From NCBI RefSeq assembly GCF_003334815.1, contig NZ_QOWO01000012.1: a DNA stretch of 64,000 nucleotides. One strand, 5' to 3'. The position numbers and the translations under genes are program-made. How positions within the stretch are numbered: position 1 is the stretch's first letter; each line of letters starts with the position of its first letter. The DNA is from Escherichia coli (GTDB lineage: Bacteria > Pseudomonadota > Gammaproteobacteria > Enterobacterales > Enterobacteriaceae). Below the pieces are notes generated by a model. It saw only the letters and a list, made by a program, of their open reading frames with translations. It had not been told where the DNA came from and did no database searches. Shown here one piece after another: positions 1,163-62,961 of the stretch.

Positions 1163-2951
1163 AGACTGTCTCATAATCTTTGTCGAACAGGTTGGCTATT
1201 TTACCACGAACTGTCAGGTGAGAGGTGACCGGATACGCAACCGCAAGATCCCACAAGCTCACACCGCCCATTTTAACGGTTTGATAAGGATAAGATGAGT
1301 AATCCTTATCATAGCGAGTGCCTAAATACTGATAAGTAATACCCCAGTCGAAGTCATACAACTGCCAGTCGAGCTGGTATTTCACCTGCTGTTTAGCACG
1401 GCGTAACAACGGCGTGTCGGTAATCGCATTGCGCGCATCGACATAATCATAACTCACAGTATGCGTCAGTGGTCCGGTATCAAAATTGGCGGTCGCCTCG
1501 ACGCCCTTAATCCGCGCTTTCCCTTCGTTGTAATATTTCAGGGTGTGATCATCATAATCGATCAAGTCACTGACATCGTTACGATATCCGGAAATACGCC
1601 AGTTCACCCCAGCGGTTAAGCCTTCAAACGCGCCTTCCCACTGTTTGCTTTTCTCCGGGTCCAGATTCGGATTTCCGTAGAAGCCATACAGTTGCCCCAG
1701 ATTTGGTGCCTTATAAGATGTCCCGTAGGAAGCAATGAAGCGATAACCTTCGATGAATTCCCAACCGGCGCTGGTTTGCCAGGTTCCATGACGACCAAAC
1801 TGTGAGTTATCGTCACTGCGTGCTGCGCCTTCAAAGGTAAAATCGCCGACTTGTTGCAGCCCGGTCAGATAGATGCCGGTATTACGTTGATCATATCCAT
1901 CCTCAACATAACCTGTACCCGGCGTCGTAGTCTGTTTCTGCCAGTCGACACCCGCACCAATACTACCGTGACCAACGATGACATTGTTTGCCCACTGGAC
2001 GGTGTATTGCTTCATCTCATCGAGCGTCGCCGACGAATCATAACGACCATAATGGGGATCGTAGTTGTAATCTTTGCTATGGCTATAGCTGGTAATGAGT
2101 TGTGATTTAATCAGTTCGCCGTTATAGCGCAGCCCGGCGTCCCAACTTTGGCTATAGAGTTTACGGGTATCGAGCAACGGTGAACCGGGAGAATAATACG
2201 CGTCATAATTGGTACGGTTATCATAGCCATAGCCGCGCACAAAGCCGCTCCAGGCATCAGTAAAGTTATGCTCCAGCGCGCCATAAAGCGTTTTACTTAA
2301 AAAACCATCGTTATCTGTCTGCGCTTGCGTTCCGGTATTACCATAGGCAACAACATCATAACCATGAGTATGGGCATAATCGCCCAACAGCGTTACCCGT
2401 GTCTTATCCCCCAGTTGTTGCTGCGTAGAGACATCATAGTTCTGATAACTATTGCTTCCCCACCCTGCTGAAATTTCCGTTCCGGGTTCATCGCGCGTCG
2501 TGATGATATTCACCACCCCGCCTATTGCATCGGAACCATAAACAGCGGAGCGCGGCCCACGGATATATTCAACACGCTGGACAAGCGCAATAGGGAACTG
2601 GCTAAGGTCGGCAGAACCACTCACCCCCGCCAGATTCAGGCGTACGCCATCAATTAACACCAACACATGACTGGCATTTGTACCGCGAATAAAAATAGAT
2701 GAGAGCTGACCTGAACCGCCGTTTTGGGTGATATCGACGCCCGGAAGACGGCGCAGCACATCATTGACCGAGGTCGACTGCCAGCGGTCGATATCCTGAC
2801 GGGTCACAACGGTGGTTGGTGCAAGCACAGTGCTGCGCGGCTGTTCAAAACGGTTAGCAGTAACGACGAGAGTATCCGGGCTGGTATCCTGTGCCCAAGC
2901 GGAAAATGCCGTGACGGAACACGCCGTCAGCAGCGAAGCTTTTTTAATCAT
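1107..2951 (-). CDS. btuB: TonB-dependent vitamin B12 outer-membrane receptor
   Basis: ORF 1107..2996; signal peptide [20 protein letters not shown], TonB box DTLVVTA, C-terminal aromatic residue; start trimmed to MIKK. Confidence 0.95.
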
Positions 2952-3191
2952 TGTAAAGCATCCACAATAGAAGAAGGATGCCGCAGGTTTCATCAATATT
3001 ACGCGATGATGAGAACCAGATGCGACGTTGGCCGGCAGGTCTTCGGGCTTGGAGGGGTATCTAAGATACTAAGAGATGATGACTTCCCACCGAATGGCAG
3101 TGTCCGCATAACGCAATCATCGCACCTTTCCTTACCGCTGCGCGTCAGCTCCAGATTCGCACTGGATTCCCTATTAACTCACAGGACCGGC
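2952..3191 (-). ncRNA. Adenosylcobalamin riboswitch (btuB 5' leader)
   Basis: About 240-nt leader upstream of btuB on the minus strand matching the recalled btuB leader (GCCGGTCCTGTGAGTTAATAGGGAATCCAGTGCGAATCTGGAGCTGACGCG...); element continues into the first btuB codons. Confidence 0.85.
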
Positions 3192-3319
3192 AAGTGGATG
3201 CTACAGGTTGTAACAAGTTACTGTCCAGACGTAGCTCACAAATAGGAATTCATCAAGATCTGGACATCTGATGAGCAATCCCTACAATCGCCGCGTACTT
3301 TAATTTTTCAGGATACATC

Positions 3320-4420
3320 ATGACCCCCGAACACCTTCCAACAGAACAGTATGAAGCGCAGTTAGCCGAAAAAGTGGTACGTTTGCAAAGTATGATGGCA
3401 CCGTTTTCTGACCTGGTTCCGGAAGTGTTTCGCTCGCCGGTCAGTCATTACCGGATGCGCGCGGAGTTCCGCATCTGGCACGATGGCGATGACCTGTATC
3501 ACATCATTTTCGATCAACAAACCAAAAGCCGCATCCGCGTGGATAGCTTCCCCGCCGCCAGTGAACTTATCAACCAGTTGATGACGGCGATGATTGCGGG
3601 TGTGCGTAATAATCCCGTTCTGCGCCACAAGTTGTTCCAGATTGATTACCTCACTACGCTGAGTAATCAGGCGGTGGTTTCCCTGCTATACCATAAGAAG
3701 CTGGATGATGAGTGGCGTCAGGAAGCGGAGGCCCTGCGCGATGCACTGCGCGCGCAGAATCTGAATGTGCATCTGATTGGTCGGGCAACGAAAACCAAAA
3801 TCGAGCTGGATCAGGATTACATCGATGAACGTCTGCCGGTCGCAGGGAAAGAGATGATCTACCGTCAGGTAGAAAACAGCTTTACCCAGCCGAACGCGGC
3901 GATGAATATTCAGATGCTGGAATGGGCGCTGGACGTAACCAAAGGCTCAAAAGGCGATTTACTGGAGCTGTACTGCGGCAACGGTAACTTTTCATTAGCG
4001 CTGGCGCGTAATTTTGATCGGGTATTAGCCACCGAAATCGCTAAGCCGTCGGTTGCTGCTGCGCAATACAACATCGCAGCTAACCATATTGATAACGTAC
4101 AAATTATTCGTATGGCGGCAGAAGAATTTACTCAGGCGATGAATGGTGTGCGCGAGTTTAACCGCCTGCAAGGGATCGACTTAAAGAGTTATCAGTGCGA
4201 AACCATTTTTGTCGACCCACCGCGCAGCGGTCTGGACAGTGAAACCGAGAAAATGGTGCAGGCGTATCCGCGTATTTTGTACATCTCCTGTAACCCGGAA
4301 ACGTTATGCAAGAATCTGGAAACATTAAGCCAGACGCACAAGGTCGAACGTCTGGCTCTGTTTGATCAGTTCCCCTACACGCACCATATGGAGTGCGGCG
4401 TATTACTGACCGCGAAGTAA
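3320..4420 (+). CDS. trmA: tRNA (uracil54-C5)-methyltransferase
   Basis: 366-aa ORF; SAM-dependent methyltransferase motifs ([20 protein letters not shown]); divergent from btuB. Confidence 0.95.
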
Positions 4421-8195: not shown

Positions 8196-8304
8196 GAAAC
8201 GGAGCGGCACCTCTTTTAACCCTTGAAGTCACTGCCCGTTTCGAGAGTTTCTCAACTCGAATAACTAAAGCCAACGTGAACTTTTGCGGATCTCCAGGAT
8301 CCGC
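8196..8304 (+). ncRNA. oxyS: OxyS small regulatory RNA
   Basis: Sequence GAAACGGAGCGGCACCTCTTTTAACCCTTGAAGTCACTGCCCGTTTCGAGAGTTTCTCAACTCGAATAACTAAAGCCAACGTGAACTTTTGCGGATCTCCAGGATCCGC matches recalled OxyS; divergent from oxyR; ends in a hairpin plus T8. Confidence 0.9.
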
Positions 8305-8312
8305 TTTTTTTT
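8286..8312 (+). terminator. Intrinsic terminator of oxyS
   Basis: Stem GCGGATC/GATCCGC followed by TTTTTTTT. Confidence 0.8.
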
Positions 8313-57798: not shown

Positions 57799-57897
57799 GC
57801 CGGATGCGGCGCGAACGCCTTATCCGGCCTACAAAAGTTTGCAAATTCAATAAATTGCAGAATTCATGTAGGCCTGATAAGCGAAGCGCATCAGGCA
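57799..57897. repeat. BIME (inverted REP pair)
   Basis: GCCGGATGCGGCGCGAACGCCTTATCCGGCCTACA ... GTAGGCCTGATAAGCGAAGCGCATCAGGCA. Confidence 0.85.
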
Positions 57898-58915: not shown

Positions 58916-59095
58916 GACTACCTCTGAACTTTGGAATGCAAAATGAAATCTGTTGCCGGAAGTCTTCTTGCACATCGAAGTGATCCAACGAATGTGCAAA
59001 TAGTATAACAATCACTTCCTGCTGAATTGATTCAGGTCAGGCCAAATGGCGGTATTTTATACACAAAATGCGGGTCTGGCTCTCTTTTATACTGA

Positions 59096-59998
59096 TTATG
59101 AAAGCATAGACCGTTTACCCTCCCTGGGTACGACGGAACAGGGGTCCTGATGGATAATTACATCCGATCCCGGAAAACGCCGTAAAATAGCCTGCTCTAC
59201 CTGATCCGCCACCATATGTGCCTGAACCAAAGGCAGAGAGTCTTCCATTTCCAAATGAATCTGAATAAAGCGGGTCGGCCCTGACTGCCGCGTGCGAAGA
59301 TCGTGAGCGCCGCTAACACCCGGCCAGGAAGTCACGATATCAATAATTTCTTGCCGTTCCTCATCAGGCAATGCGCGATCCAGTAATGACTGTACCGCCT
59401 CATATCCCATGCGTAACGCGCTATATAAAATATAGATGCCGATTCCCAATGCAAACAGAGCATCGGCGCGATGCCAGCCGTACCAGGACAACCCCAGCGC
59501 CAGCAGAATTGCGCCGTTCATCATAACATCAGACTGGTAATGTAGCATATCAGCCCGCACCGCCTGGCTTTGCGTCCGCCGCACCACCCAACGCTGAAAC
59601 GAGACAAGGATAATCGTACAAATTAGCGCCACAATTGTCACGATAACCCCGACGCCTGGATCTGTCATCGGTGTTGGAGATATCAGATGTTGAATACCCG
59701 TCAAAAACAGGAATAGTGCCGAACCGGAGATAAACATACTTTGCGCCAGCGCCGCGAGGGACTCAGCTTTACCGTGACCAAACGAGTGATTATCGTCGGC
59801 AGGTTGCAGGGAATATCGCACCACCAATAAATTCGTCAACGACGCGCCGATATCCACCAGCGAATCCACCAGCGCGGCGAGAATACTCACCGACCCGGTA
59901 TACCACCATGCAAAAATTTTAATCAGCAATAGCAGCGAAGCCATCGCCGTCGCAGCAATCGCCGCCCGACTGACCAGCCGTCCATAAGATTGATTCAT
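59096..59998 (-). CDS. fieF: Cation diffusion facilitator Fe/Zn efflux transporter
   Basis: ORF 59096..60016 trimmed to [17 protein letters not shown] (300 aa); CDF family. Confidence 0.93.
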
Positions 59999-60079
59999 AA
60001 ATACTCCCGCTATCAACTGACGCTAGTATAACGGAAGCAAATCATCTGCAATGCATTAAGCAGCAGGCAAATTGAGGAT

Positions 60080-60146
60080 AAAAAAAACCCCCACAGCATG
60101 TGGGGGAAGACAGGGATGGTGTCTATGGCAAGGAAAACAGGGTTTA
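60080..60146 (-). ncRNA. cpxQ: cpxP 3'UTR with intrinsic terminator (CpxQ sRNA region)
   Basis: 67 nt between the cpxP stop and the end of the terminator (minus-strand stem from 60088..60106 followed by T8); CpxQ is known to be processed from the cpxP 3'UTR. Confidence 0.7.
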
Positions 60147-60647
60147 CTACTGGGAACGTGAGTTGCTACTACTCAATAGCTTCAACGATGAACTTTTTTG
60201 CCATTGCGTCACGTCACGCAACTGCTCCATTCGTTGTTGATGTTTCTCGTTTAAAACCGCTTGCTGCTCCGGCGTTAACAGGCGATACATTTGGTTGCGG
60301 ACTTTTGCCATCTCAACCTGACGAGCAATTTGCTCATTCGCCATTTTTTCTGCCTGTGCGCGCACAGCGTTTTCATCAAAATTTTCTGCGGTGACAAGGC
60401 GATGCATTGTCTCCAGTTCGCTAACATTAACAGGAGGCTGTTCGTGCCGGGCCTGTTGCATAAGATCTCGCATCTGCTGACGCTGATGTTCGGTTAAACT
60501 TATGCCGTCGAACATATGGCTCTGCGTACTGCGCTGCGTAAGTTCTTCACCCGGATGCCAGTTATCGCCTGAACCGACTTCAGCAGCGTGGCTTAATGAA
60601 CTGACTGCCAGCGTTGAGGCCATGACGGCAGCGGTAACTATGCGCAT
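60147..60647 (-). CDS. cpxP: Periplasmic adaptor/inhibitor of the Cpx envelope stress system
   Basis: ORF 60147..60650 trimmed to [21 protein letters not shown]; two LTxxQ motifs. Confidence 0.93.
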
Positions 60648-60726
60648 CATTTGCTCCCAAAATCTTTCTGTCGCGATTCAACGATAGAGAGTTTACGATT
60701 CAGGCTGCAAACATGCGTCAGGGGGT

Positions 60727-60741
60727 GTAAAACAACGTAAA
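60727..60741. promoter_or_regulatory. CpxR-P box in the cpxP / cpxRA divergent region
   Basis: Exact GTAAA-N5-GTAAA (GTAAAACAACGTAAA); a further inverted half-site GTTTAC at 60692..60697. Confidence 0.8.
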
Positions 60742-60796
60742 GTCATGGATTAGCGACGTCTGATGACGTAATTTCTGCCTCGGAGGTATTTAAACA

Positions 60797-61495
60797 ATGA
60801 ATAAAATCCTGTTAGTTGATGATGACCGAGAGCTGACTTCCCTATTAAAGGAGCTGCTCGAGATGGAAGGCTTCAACGTGATTGTTGCCCACGATGGGGA
60901 ACAGGCGCTTGATCTTCTGGACGACAGCATTGATTTACTTTTGCTTGACGTAATGATGCCGAAGAAAAATGGTATCGACACATTAAAAGCACTTCGCCAG
61001 ACACACCAGACGCCTGTCATTATGTTGACGGCGCGCGGCAGTGAACTTGATCGCGTTCTCGGCCTTGAGCTGGGCGCAGATGACTATCTCCCGAAACCGT
61101 TTAATGATCGTGAGCTGGTGGCACGTATTCGCGCGATCCTGCGCCGTTCGCACTGGAGCGAGCAACAGCAAAACAACGACAACGGTTCACCGACACTGGA
61201 AGTTGATGCCTTAGTGCTGAATCCAGGCCGTCAGGAAGCCAGCTTCGACGGGCAAACGCTGGAGTTAACCGGTACTGAGTTTACCCTGCTCTATTTGCTG
61301 GCACAGCATCTGGGTCAGGTGGTTTCCCGTGAACATTTAAGCCAGGAAGTGTTGGGCAAACGCCTGACGCCTTTCGACCGCGCTATTGATATGCACATTT
61401 CCAACCTGCGTCGTAAACTGCCGGATCGTAAAGATGGTCACCCGTGGTTTAAAACCTTGCGTGGTCGCGGCTATCTGATGGTTTCTGCTTCATGA
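60797..61495 (+). CDS. cpxR: OmpR-family response regulator CpxR
   Basis: 232-aa ORF; receiver domain (LLLDVMMP) plus winged-helix output domain. Confidence 0.97.
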   Translation: MNKILLVDDDRELTSLLKELLEMEGFNVIVAHDGEQALDLLDDSIDLLLLDVMMPKKNGIDTLKALRQTHQTPVIMLTARGSELDRVLGLELGADDYLPKPFNDRELVARIRAILRRSHWSEQQQNNDNGSPTLEVDALVLNPGRQEASFDGQTLELTGTEFTLLYLLAQHLGQVVSREHLSQEVLGKRLTPFDRAIDMHISNLRRKLPDRKDGHPWFKTLRGRGYLMVSAS

Positions 61496-62865
61496 TAGGC
61501 AGCTTAACCGCGCGCATCTTCGCCATCTTCTGGCTGACGCTGGCGCTGGTGTTGATGTTGGTTTTGATGTTACCCAAGCTCGATTCACGCCAGATGACCG
61601 AGCTTCTGGATAGCGAACAGCGTCAGGGGCTGATGATTGAGCAGCATGTCGAAGCGGAGCTGGCGAACGATCCGCCCAACGATTTAATGTGGTGGCGGCG
61701 TCTGTTCCGGGCGATTGATAAGTGGGCACCGCCAGGACAGCGTTTGTTATTGGTGACCACCGAAGGCCGCGTGATCGGCGCTGAACGCAGCGAAATGCAG
61801 ATCATTCGTAACTTTATTGGTCAGGCCGATAACGCCGATCATCCGCAGAAGAAAAAGTATGGCCGCGTGGAACTGGTCGGTCCGTTCTCCGTGCGTGATG
61901 GCGAAGATAATTACCAACTTTATCTGATTCGTCCGGCCAGCAGTTCTCAATCCGATTTCATTAACTTACTGTTTGACCGCCCGCTATTACTGCTGATTGT
62001 CACCATGTTGGTCAGTACGCCGCTGCTGTTGTGGTTGGCCTGGAGTCTGGCAAAACCGGCGCGTAAGCTGAAAAACGCTGCCGATGAAGTTGCCCAGGGA
62101 AACTTACGCCAGCACCCGGAACTGGAAGCGGGGCCACAGGAATTCCTTGCCGCAGGTGCCAGTTTTAACCAGATGGTCACCGCGCTGGAGCGCATGATGA
62201 CCTCTCAGCAGCGTCTGCTTTCTGATATCTCTCACGAGCTGCGCACCCCGCTGACGCGTCTGCAACTGGGTACGGCGTTACTGCGCCGTCGTAGCGGTGA
62301 AAGCAAGGAACTGGAGCGTATTGAAACCGAAGCGCAACGTCTGGACAGCATGATCAACGATCTGTTGGTGATGTCACGTAATCAGCAAAAAAACGCGCTG
62401 GTTAGCGAAACCATCAAAGCCAACCAGTTGTGGAGTGAAGTGCTGGATAACGCGGCGTTCGAAGCCGAGCAAATGGGCAAGTCGTTGACAGTTAACTTCC
62501 CGCCTGGGCCGTGGCCGCTGTACGGCAATCCGAACGCCCTGGAAAGTGCGCTGGAAAACATTGTTCGTAATGCTCTGCGTTATTCCCATACGAAGATTGA
62601 AGTGGGCTTTGCGGTAGATAAAGACGGTATCACCATTACGGTGGACGACGATGGTCCTGGCGTTAGCCCGGAAGATCGCGAACAGATTTTCCGTCCGTTC
62701 TATCGTACCGATGAAGCACGCGATCGTGAATCTGGCGGTACAGGTTTGGGGCTGGCGATTGTTGAAACCGCCATTCAGCAGCATCGTGGCTGGGTGAAGG
62801 CAGAAGACAGCCCGCTGGGCGGTTTACGGCTGGTGATTTGGTTGCCGCTGTATAAGCGGAGTTAA
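61492..62865 (+). CDS. cpxA: Sensor histidine kinase CpxA
   Basis: 457-aa ORF; two TM helices, HAMP, H-box SHELRTPLT, ATPase G-boxes; start overlaps the cpxR stop (ATGA). Confidence 0.97.
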   Translation: MIGSLTARIFAIFWLTLALVLMLVLMLPKLDSRQMTELLDSEQRQGLMIEQHVEAELANDPPNDLMWWRRLFRAIDKWAPPGQRLLLVTTEGRVIGAERSEMQIIRNFIGQADNADHPQKKKYGRVELVGPFSVRDGEDNYQLYLIRPASSSQSDFINLLFDRPLLLLIVTMLVSTPLLLWLAWSLAKPARKLKNAADEVAQGNLRQHPELEAGPQEFLAAGASFNQMVTALERMMTSQQRLLSDISHELRTPLTRLQLGTALLRRRSGESKELERIETEAQRLDSMINDLLVMSRNQQKNALVSETIKANQLWSEVLDNAAFEAEQMGKSLTVNFPPGPWPLYGNPNALESALENIVRNALRYSHTKIEVGFAVDKDGITITVDDDGPGVSPEDREQIFRPFYRTDEARDRESGGTGLGLAIVETAIQQHRGWVKAEDSPLGGLRLVIWLPLYKRS

Positions 62866-62880
62866 ACTTCGCATTTGCAG

Positions 62881-62961
62881 GCAGGATAAGGCGTTTACGC
62901 CGCATCCGGCATTTGAGCAGGATGCCTGATGCGACGCTGATAGCGTCTTATCAGGCCTACA
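62881..62961. repeat. BIME (inverted REP pair)
   Basis: GCAGGATAAGGCGTTTACGCCGCATCCGGCA ... GCCTGATGCGACGCTGATAGCGTCTTATCAGGCCTACA. Confidence 0.85.

Follow-up and report, generated by a model that had tools for sequence, protein, structure and literature searches.

The recognition sequence of phosphorylated CpxR (CpxR-P) is said to follow the consensus GTAAA-N5-GTAAA, reportedly defined by De Wulf et al. 2002, and the CpxQ sRNA of Salmonella and E. coli is reportedly the subject of Chao & Vogel 2016. In E. coli, massively parallel mutagenesis with a reporter footprint revealed a site at cpxRp where CpxR acts as an activator, and mass spectrometry identified the protein as CpxR. The divergent cpxR/cpxP promoter of Yersinia pseudotuberculosis contains a GTAAA-N5-GTAAA sequence ~55 nt ahead of cpxR that has been footprinted, and shuffling this box weakens the binding of CpxR~P and leaves cpxR poorly expressed (PMC3158067). 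Expression of cpxP is strictly CpxR-dependent (PMC9600279, Table 1): the mRNA rises 60-fold when NlpE is overproduced and drops to 0.03 when a strain with the NlpE plasmid lacks cpxR. A passage of PMC9753035 that cites Yamamoto & Ishihama 2006 assigns three CpxR-P sites to PcpxP, one of which extends to +5. The other end of cpxP gives rise to CpxQ, an Hfq-dependent, RNase E-processed RNA that spans almost the entire 3'UTR of the gene (PMC9438474, PMC6755755, PMC4817254), is ~60 nt long, varies less than the remainder of cpxP and represses nhaB, skp, agp, ydjN, fimA and cfa (PMC9438474, PMC6755755, PMC5736990, PMC4817254). The RNase E cleavage has been placed near the cpxP stop codon (PMC9438474). 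CpxR binding, the dependence of CpxQ on RNase E and Hfq, and its targets are thereby established by experiment in the literature.

How does the present locus compare with these systems? The window, by which we mean the whole stretch of 64,000 nucleotides of E. coli DNA that was analysed, contains what is almost certainly the canonical Cpx envelope-stress control locus of this species. In a sequence search with 901 bp from across the region, the identity to E. coli K-12 MG1655 is 100%, and every one of the 5,426 complete E. coli genomes in the search contains this query. The RefSeq record NC_000913.3 annotates cpxA, cpxR, cpxP, the ncRNA cpxQ (b4716), fieF and pfkA at matching positions, the window position being 4166467 minus the MG1655 position. 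In the ORF list, read over 59000..61800, cpxP, fieF and pfkA lie on the minus strand and cpxR and cpxA on the plus strand. The ORF list and RefSeq give the following genes:

59096..59998, minus strand: fieF coding sequence, 300 aa
60147..60647, minus strand: cpxP coding sequence, 166 aa, with its TAG stop at 60147..60149
60797..61495, plus strand: cpxR coding sequence
61492..62865, plus strand: cpxA, after cpxR

All the coordinates of a preliminary description of this DNA check out against the ORF list, the scans and the RefSeq annotation. We compared the locus with 80 cpxP loci from other Enterobacteriaceae species, in which CpxP identity ranges from 71 to 100%, and per-column conservation was calculated on 78 non-redundant sequences from this set. 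In the alignment, the first base of an in-frame ATG three bases upstream of the cpxP start (60650) is common to only ~20% of the sequences. The intergenic region between cpxP and cpxR measures 149 bp and is conserved nearly throughout, except for about six positions at 60756..60761, a pattern that fits two overlapping promoter regions. Within it and at its borders we place the following features, the cpxP 5'UTR being derived from published PcpxP sequences mapped onto the window:

60648..60682, minus strand: cpxP 5'UTR, 35 nt, with +1 at the G of 60682
60690..60696, minus strand: GTAAA half-site (60696..60692) that overlaps the probable -10 hexamer of cpxP
60707..60721, plus strand: weaker box GCAAA-CATGC-GTCAG, three mismatches to the consensus, centred at -32 relative to the cpxP transcription start
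60727..60741, plus strand: perfect CpxR box GTAAA-ACAAC-GTAAA, GTAAAACAACGTAAA, which reads TTTAC-N5-TTTAC on the cpxP strand
60767..60772, plus strand: candidate cpxRA -10 hexamer CGTAAT, within the fully conserved block 60762..60787
60783..60787, plus strand: cpxR Shine-Dalgarno sequence GGAGG, in a fully conserved block

The preliminary description had located a perfect GTAAA-N5-GTAAA site at 60727..60741 between the divergent cpxP and cpxRA, and both position and match were confirmed. GTAAAACAACGTAAA is the sole perfect match within the 64-kb window. Dinucleotide shuffling yields a mean of 0.13 such matches, with at least one in 11 of 100 shuffles, and the expectation scaled from these shuffles to the 149-bp intergenic region alone is ~3e-4; it is the placement within this region that gives the box its meaning. 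The 15-mer, spacer included, is identical in all 80 of the 80 Enterobacteriaceae cpxP loci with upstream sequence. The centre of the box lies 52 bp upstream of the reported cpxP transcription start (-52), and 55 nt separate its end from the cpxR ATG. Table S10 of PMC9753035 gives the end of PcpxP as ...CTCTATC and that of PcpxP(+5) as ...CTCTATCGTTGA.

No strong sigma-70 site emerged from a consensus scan of 59900..60900, as would be expected where promoters need an activator. TAAACT (60695..60690, minus strand) is the likely -10 hexamer of cpxP, and we infer CGTAAT at 60767..60772 to be a candidate for that of cpxRA. A scan for further CpxR half-sites, as proposed in the preliminary description, yielded the weaker box at 60707..60721 and the GTAAA at 60696..60692, but neither is significant by sequence statistics. 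The weaker box is a candidate second CpxR-P site: its stretch is highly conserved in the alignment and it keeps a 10-bp phase with the perfect box, the plus-strand pentamers GCAAA, GTCAG, GTAAA and GTAAA starting at 60707, 60717, 60727 and 60737. About 0.95 boxes with up to three mismatches are expected per 149 bp, and GTAAA half-sites are over-represented in the whole window (161 against ~105 expected), so that weaker CpxR sites are not callable from sequence alone.

At the other end of cpxP, the 3'UTR divides as follows:

60146..60080, minus strand: cpxP 3'UTR, 67 nt, after the TAG stop
60146..60138, minus strand: first 9 nt of the 3'UTR, UAAACCCUG, preceding the annotated CpxQ 5' end (processing site)
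60137..60080, minus strand: CpxQ sRNA, b4716, 58 nt, RefSeq ncRNA
60137..60125, minus strand: CpxQ 5' single-stranded seed, from the fold
60124..60108, minus strand: CpxQ stem-loop 1 with a 5-bp stem, from the fold
60106..60088, minus strand: terminator hairpin with an 8-bp stem, six G-C pairs and a 3-nt loop, from the terminator scan and the fold
60087..60080, minus strand: U8 tail (T8 in the DNA), directly after the hairpin

By annotation and terminator scan, CpxQ occupies the 3' end of cpxP in the same orientation, and one terminator serves both. Since K-12 MG1655 is 100% identical here, the b4716 sequence is exactly that of 60080..60137. The 3'UTR length of 67 nt given in the preliminary description was borne out by the stop codon at 60147..60149, and so was its assignment to the CpxQ region, b4716 being the last 58 of the 67 nt. 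The span 60080..60146 named there differs from the annotated CpxQ only in adding the 9 nt upstream, which fall outside the sRNA. The terminator, described as a G5 stem with T8, is indeed strong and ends in T8, but its stem is longer than that, at 8 bp. The 58 nt of CpxQ fold with -17.4 kcal/mol (z = -2.8).

Conservation across 78 loci is ~100% exactly over CpxQ (60137..60080), while the last cpxP codons on one side and the spacer toward fieF on the other are variable. The stretch from CCTTGCC to CTTCCCC (60133..60103) is invariant in 41 distinct 3'UTR variants. Stem-loop 1 is without any variation and is thus uninformative on covariation. The terminator stem, CCCCCAC/GTGGGGG, changes by compensation to CCCCCTC/GAGGGGG, CCCCTCC/GGAGGGG and CCCCGCC/GGCGGGG; in the alignment count, three pairs and 21 cells are changed on both sides. 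The observed covariation score of the terminator was reached by 0 of 500 shuffles, and the partner-slide controls scored far lower.

The same DNA has a second role. In the E. coli search, an 81-nt CpxQ query was found in more places than there are genomes, and a 47-bp block (60123..60077) matches 62 phage records, mostly P2-like (Peduovirus). The block corresponds to one further feature:

60077..60123, minus strand: attB core of WPhi-type P2-like phages, 47 bp, comprising CpxQ nt 15-58 and 3 nt beyond

The WPhi integration site was reportedly described by the Haggard-Ljungquist group. In phage WPhi, the block sits between ogr and int, the interval in which P2-like phages carry attP, and 46 of the 47 positions of the WPhi attP core are identical to 60077..60123. 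In E. coli W, a WPhi lysogen, one junction reads cpxP-core-int and the other ogr-core-fieF, the core being duplicated as attL and attR; a second lysogen that we checked has the same attR. K-12 attB, W attL, W attR and WPhi attP align cleanly over a core of 47 bp, in which a single position differs. This position is the base in the terminator loop, a C at 60096 in K-12; the base is different, and nearly always A, in the phage, in E. coli W and in the remaining 41 distinct 3'UTR variants. At W attL, CpxQ is whole, because its 3' 44 nt come from the core. Of 5,426 complete E. coli genomes, 4,591 match a 201-nt query around the midpoint of the site without interruption, and in 835 (about 15%) the match is split; 786 genomes carry a WPhi-type core together with int. 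The interruptions are mostly WPhi-type prophages, and in one checked strain, GN02461, an IS200C element has entered the CpxQ U-tail, where IS sequence begins after T7. That WPhi integrates here was identified earlier, and L-413C shares the core (PMC3448106). In the literature that we searched, no paper was found that combines CpxQ with a prophage and an attachment site. Plasmid-borne mobile copies of CpxQ were also considered and rejected: the plasmid-labelled records in question hold whole chromosomal cpxA-cpxR-cpxP-fieF-pfkA segments. One plasmid-labelled record with such a segment is labelled Pseudomonas sp. A2.

Beyond the terminator lies fieF, whose ATG is at 59998; the distance of about 80 bp from the terminator given in the preliminary description was measured as 81 nt from the last terminator T. 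The spacer is variable apart from one conserved island:

60030..60025, minus strand: candidate fieF -10 hexamer TATACT, 70-89% conserved in an otherwise variable spacer

It is plausible that this hexamer is the -10 of fieF's own promoter, and a 'promoter of fieF' has been mentioned in the cpxP-fieF spacer (Grabowicz et al., PMC4817254).

Based on these observations and on the published experiments, we propose the following model for the working of the locus. Phosphorylated CpxR would bind the pair of pentamers at 60727..60741, a site about halfway between two promoters that face away from each other and depend on an activator. From there it would activate cpxP leftward, with +1 at 60682 and the centre of the box at about -52, and cpxRA rightward, the latter amounting to autoactivation. 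Further, weaker CpxR-P sites toward cpxP may add to the very strong induction of this gene. The cpxP mRNA would end at the strong intrinsic terminator (60106..60080), and a cut by RNase E 9 nt past the stop codon would, with Hfq, yield the 58-nt CpxQ (60137..60080), whose conserved single-stranded 5' region would repress mRNAs for envelope proteins, namely nhaB, skp, agp, ydjN, fimA and cfa. As CpxQ is released from the cpxP mRNA by RNase E, one transcript would yield both the protein arm and the RNA arm of the response. The model treats fieF, further downstream, as a gene apart that would be transcribed from a promoter of its own.

Could the box serve cpxP only, with cpxRA driven independently and no operator shared between them? 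Extra CpxR-P sites have been reported on the cpxP side only, and the promoter geometry on the cpxR side is deduced from sequence, both of which speak for this arrangement. We hold it to be very improbable, as the E. coli reporter study places a CpxR activator site, with binding confirmed by mass spectrometry, at cpxRp itself, the shuffling of the shared box in Yersinia results in poor cpxR expression, and the box scan finds no other good CpxR box between 60741 and 60797. Lowered cpxR-lacZ induction on mutating the box has, in substance, been reported for E. coli as well. The preliminary description had it that one operator can drive both promoters. The Yersinia footprint and mutation and the E. 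coli cpxRp data uphold the shared site, but the three CpxR-P sites reported at PcpxP add to the picture on that side; the shared-operator reading of the locus is supported, with the qualification that cpxP has further sites. For the other end of the gene, one may ask whether the 3'UTR is a terminator and nothing else, its extreme conservation stemming from termination, from phage attachment or from both rather than from an sRNA function. The 3' 44 nt of CpxQ do coincide with the WPhi-type attachment core, and repeated integration and excision could homogenise that stretch. Yet the 5' 14 nt (60137..60124), outside both the attachment core and the terminator, are equally invariant, and the part that does vary is the terminator stem itself, by compensatory change. 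When it is added that a stable, Hfq-bound regulatory RNA with defined targets has been demonstrated experimentally in the literature, this explanation becomes hardly tenable, and we read the 3'UTR as the source of CpxQ. Detection of the ~58-nt RNA is on record for K-12 and Salmonella.

The preliminary description had further suggested that fieF might be Cpx-dependent, which would make it part of the Cpx output, either by read-through of the cpxP terminator or by pairing of CpxQ with fieF mRNA. Both genes are read in one direction, the fieF ATG follows the cpxP terminator after only 81 nt, FieF is an inner-membrane protein, a class that CpxQ tends to target, and a passage of PMC12466345 reports selective sweeps in the fieF-cpxP intergenic region of iron(III)-selected E. 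coli B populations. Support for the suggestion came neither from the literature search, in which we found no report of Cpx control of fieF, nor from the duplex prediction for CpxQ and fieF, nor from the text of the CpxR regulon screen, where fieF is absent (PMC9600279). In that prediction, a crude duplex between the CpxQ seed and the region where fieF translation starts ranked 28 of 58 window genes and was no better than shuffles, and this pairing was rejected. Read-through would have to pass a strong terminator, an 8-bp stem followed by U8, and the -10-like element upstream of fieF is conserved, in keeping with the fieF promoter mentioned in the literature. In addition, 835 of 5,426 genomes carry a prophage of ~33 kb or an IS element between cpxP and fieF; the insertions that put ~33 kb between the two genes are natural experiments that argue against an obligatory transcriptional link. 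Membership of fieF in the Cpx output is, on balance, distinctly unlikely, and we favour a fieF gene that is transcribed separately.

What are the implications of an attachment site inside an sRNA gene? The overlap of CpxQ with the attachment core is itself solid. That it has functional consequences seems to us rather doubtful, and any regulatory consequence is speculation. Were there such consequences, lysogeny or the insertion of IS200 could alter the formation of the CpxQ 3' end or the loading of Hfq, insertion could uncouple fieF from any read-through from cpxP, transcripts could arise from the copy of CpxQ nt 15-58 that the phage carries, and phage traffic could add to the near-invariance of the core across the Enterobacteriaceae. 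Insertions are frequent in the CpxQ terminator region, and strain comparisons of CpxQ or fieF expression should allow for it. As for the locus itself, its anatomy, the CpxR box and CpxQ are already known and annotated, and there is no new biology in them; they do indicate that a reader with nothing but the sequence is able to recognise a textbook module made of a shared two-component-system operator and a 3'UTR-derived sRNA.

A search of 59900..60900 against Rfam 15 in E-value mode returned no family matching the sense strand of CpxQ. The family RF02628 (Hrs1) matches the strand antisense to cpxQ with 41.4 bits and E = 2.3e-6, below its gathering score of 56.4, and its consensus opens with A7 followed by a stem, that is, with a mirrored terminator. 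Matches to NsiR1 and anti-hemB in the same interval were dismissed as weak, terminator-like chance matches. In Erwinia amylovora, the hrs1 gene, listed at positions 130070..130143, encodes an Hfq-dependent RNA of 74 nt; it lies between cpxP and fieF and shares their strand, and its product has an intrinsic terminator and has been seen by Northern blot (PMC4070566). The RF02628 model thus appears, from the orientation of its consensus, to be a reverse-complemented CpxQ orthologue. Rfam appears to be without a correctly oriented CpxQ family, and automated annotation would miss CpxQ or assign it to the wrong strand.

Set beside the described systems, the box is a perfect match to the CpxR-P consensus GTAAA-N5-GTAAA at a known position in the divergent cpxP/cpxRA promoter region, and its distance to cpxR, 55 nt here, equals the ~55 nt of Yersinia pseudotuberculosis (PMC3158067). 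The sRNA is the same gene as the CpxQ of Salmonella and E. coli (Grabowicz et al. 2016), with the same origin in the cpxP 3'UTR, a Rho-independent terminator and a conserved 5' seed. Hrs1 (Zeng & Sundin 2014) resembles it in its dependence on Hfq, its place in the cpxP-fieF interval, its strand and its intrinsic terminator; it was classed as Erwinia-restricted in the original paper (PMC4070566), unlike CpxQ here, and is evidently the Erwinia orthologue of CpxQ, described two years earlier under another name. The DNA of the CpxQ 3' part doubles as the WPhi attB. Among other 3'UTR-derived, RNase E-processed sRNAs are SdhX, MicL, NarS and GlnZ (PMC9438474), which share with CpxQ the use of the parental mRNA promoter, a cleavage close to the stop codon and a terminator that serves as the Hfq-binding 3' end. 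CpxQ differs from these four in coming from a monocistronic mRNA and in having a protein partner in the same stress pathway.

For WPhi-type P2-like phages, the 3′ portion of the CpxQ sRNA also serves as attachment core, and in the phage genomes this core is flanked by ogr and int. The 47-bp block comprises CpxQ nucleotides 15-58 plus 3 nt, and its occurrences, together with the neighbouring spacer, are as follows.

Attachment core and adjoining spacer
60077..60123, - strand in the window: 47-bp attachment core
2501-2547 in each of two other sequence records (L082 and L083): the same core, which is also present in a third (L084)
59999..60079 in the window: fieF-cpxP spacer

What does integration mean for the sRNA? 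In E. coli W, a WPhi lysogen, attL and attR are both clean and an intact CpxQ is retained at attL. Among 5426 complete E. coli genomes the attachment site is interrupted in 835, and the WPhi-type core occurs together with int in 786. At least one of these interruptions is not a prophage: E. coli GN02461 harbours an IS200C (2613-3336 of its record, equivalent to about 60080 in the window) inserted within or directly after the CpxQ terminator U-tail. At this junction a run of T7 passes into IS sequence and ATCCTC picks up beyond the element, an allele that might change the CpxQ 3′ end.

The terminator loop of CpxQ also varies. K-12 has C at 60096 (AUGCUG), a base that is absent from the other 41 distinct 3′UTR variants in the alignment, nearly all of which have A (AUGAUG), as do E. 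coli W and phage WPhi. Across the 81-nt query, identity to K-12 reaches 99% or more in only 893 of 5426 E. coli genomes and, therefore, C is probably the minority allele. A 2025 study of E. coli B populations under iron(III) selection reported selective sweeps between fieF and cpxP, in their intergenic region (PMC12466345); the mutations, whose positions are not given in the text of that paper, could act on the promoter of fieF, on the terminator or on CpxQ.

Two PLSDB 'plasmid' entries, NZ_CP039131.1 and NZ_LN868945.1, contain the whole chromosomal yiiM-cpxA-cpxR-cpxP-fieF-pfkA segment, and one of them is labelled Pseudomonas sp. A2. Both look like chromosomal fragments or contamination misfiled as plasmids.

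Upstream of CpxQ, the cpxP reading frame has a second in-frame ATG (60648..60650) directly preceding the annotated start (MMRIV...). The first base of this upstream ATG is common to just ~20% of related species, a low conservation that supports 60647 as the true start. The preliminary description had recognized one perfect CpxR box and proposed a scan for further half-sites. On the + strand, GCAAA, GTCAG, GTAAA and GTAAA form four pentamers at 10-bp phase (60707..60741), and a - strand GTAAA (60692..60696) overlaps the probable -10 element of cpxP. The literature describes additional CpxR-P sites, for which these pentamers are candidates, but judged by sequence alone they are not significant. 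GTAAA occurs 161 times in the whole window versus ~105 expected from shuffles, none of which reached 161, and thus counting half-sites is unreliable in this genome.

Rfam matches above the gathering score, all already known in E. coli, were the following.

Rfam matches in the window
3017..3206, - strand: cobalamin riboswitch
8196..8305, + strand: OxyS
38440..38481, - strand: second ES036 element
39461..39513, - strand: L31 leader
44125..44182, + strand: ClpQY promoter element
57834..57875, + strand: ES036 element
62880..62957, + strand: naRNA4

Rfam 15 holds no CpxQ family. At 41.4 bits, short of its gathering score, RF02628, Hrs1 of Erwinia amylovora, matched 60080..60152 on the + strand, antisense to cpxQ; this Rfam model looks reverse-complemented. 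In E. amylovora, Hrs1 lies on the sense strand between cpxP and fieF (PMC4070566), and because of this position Hrs1 is evidently a CpxQ orthologue.
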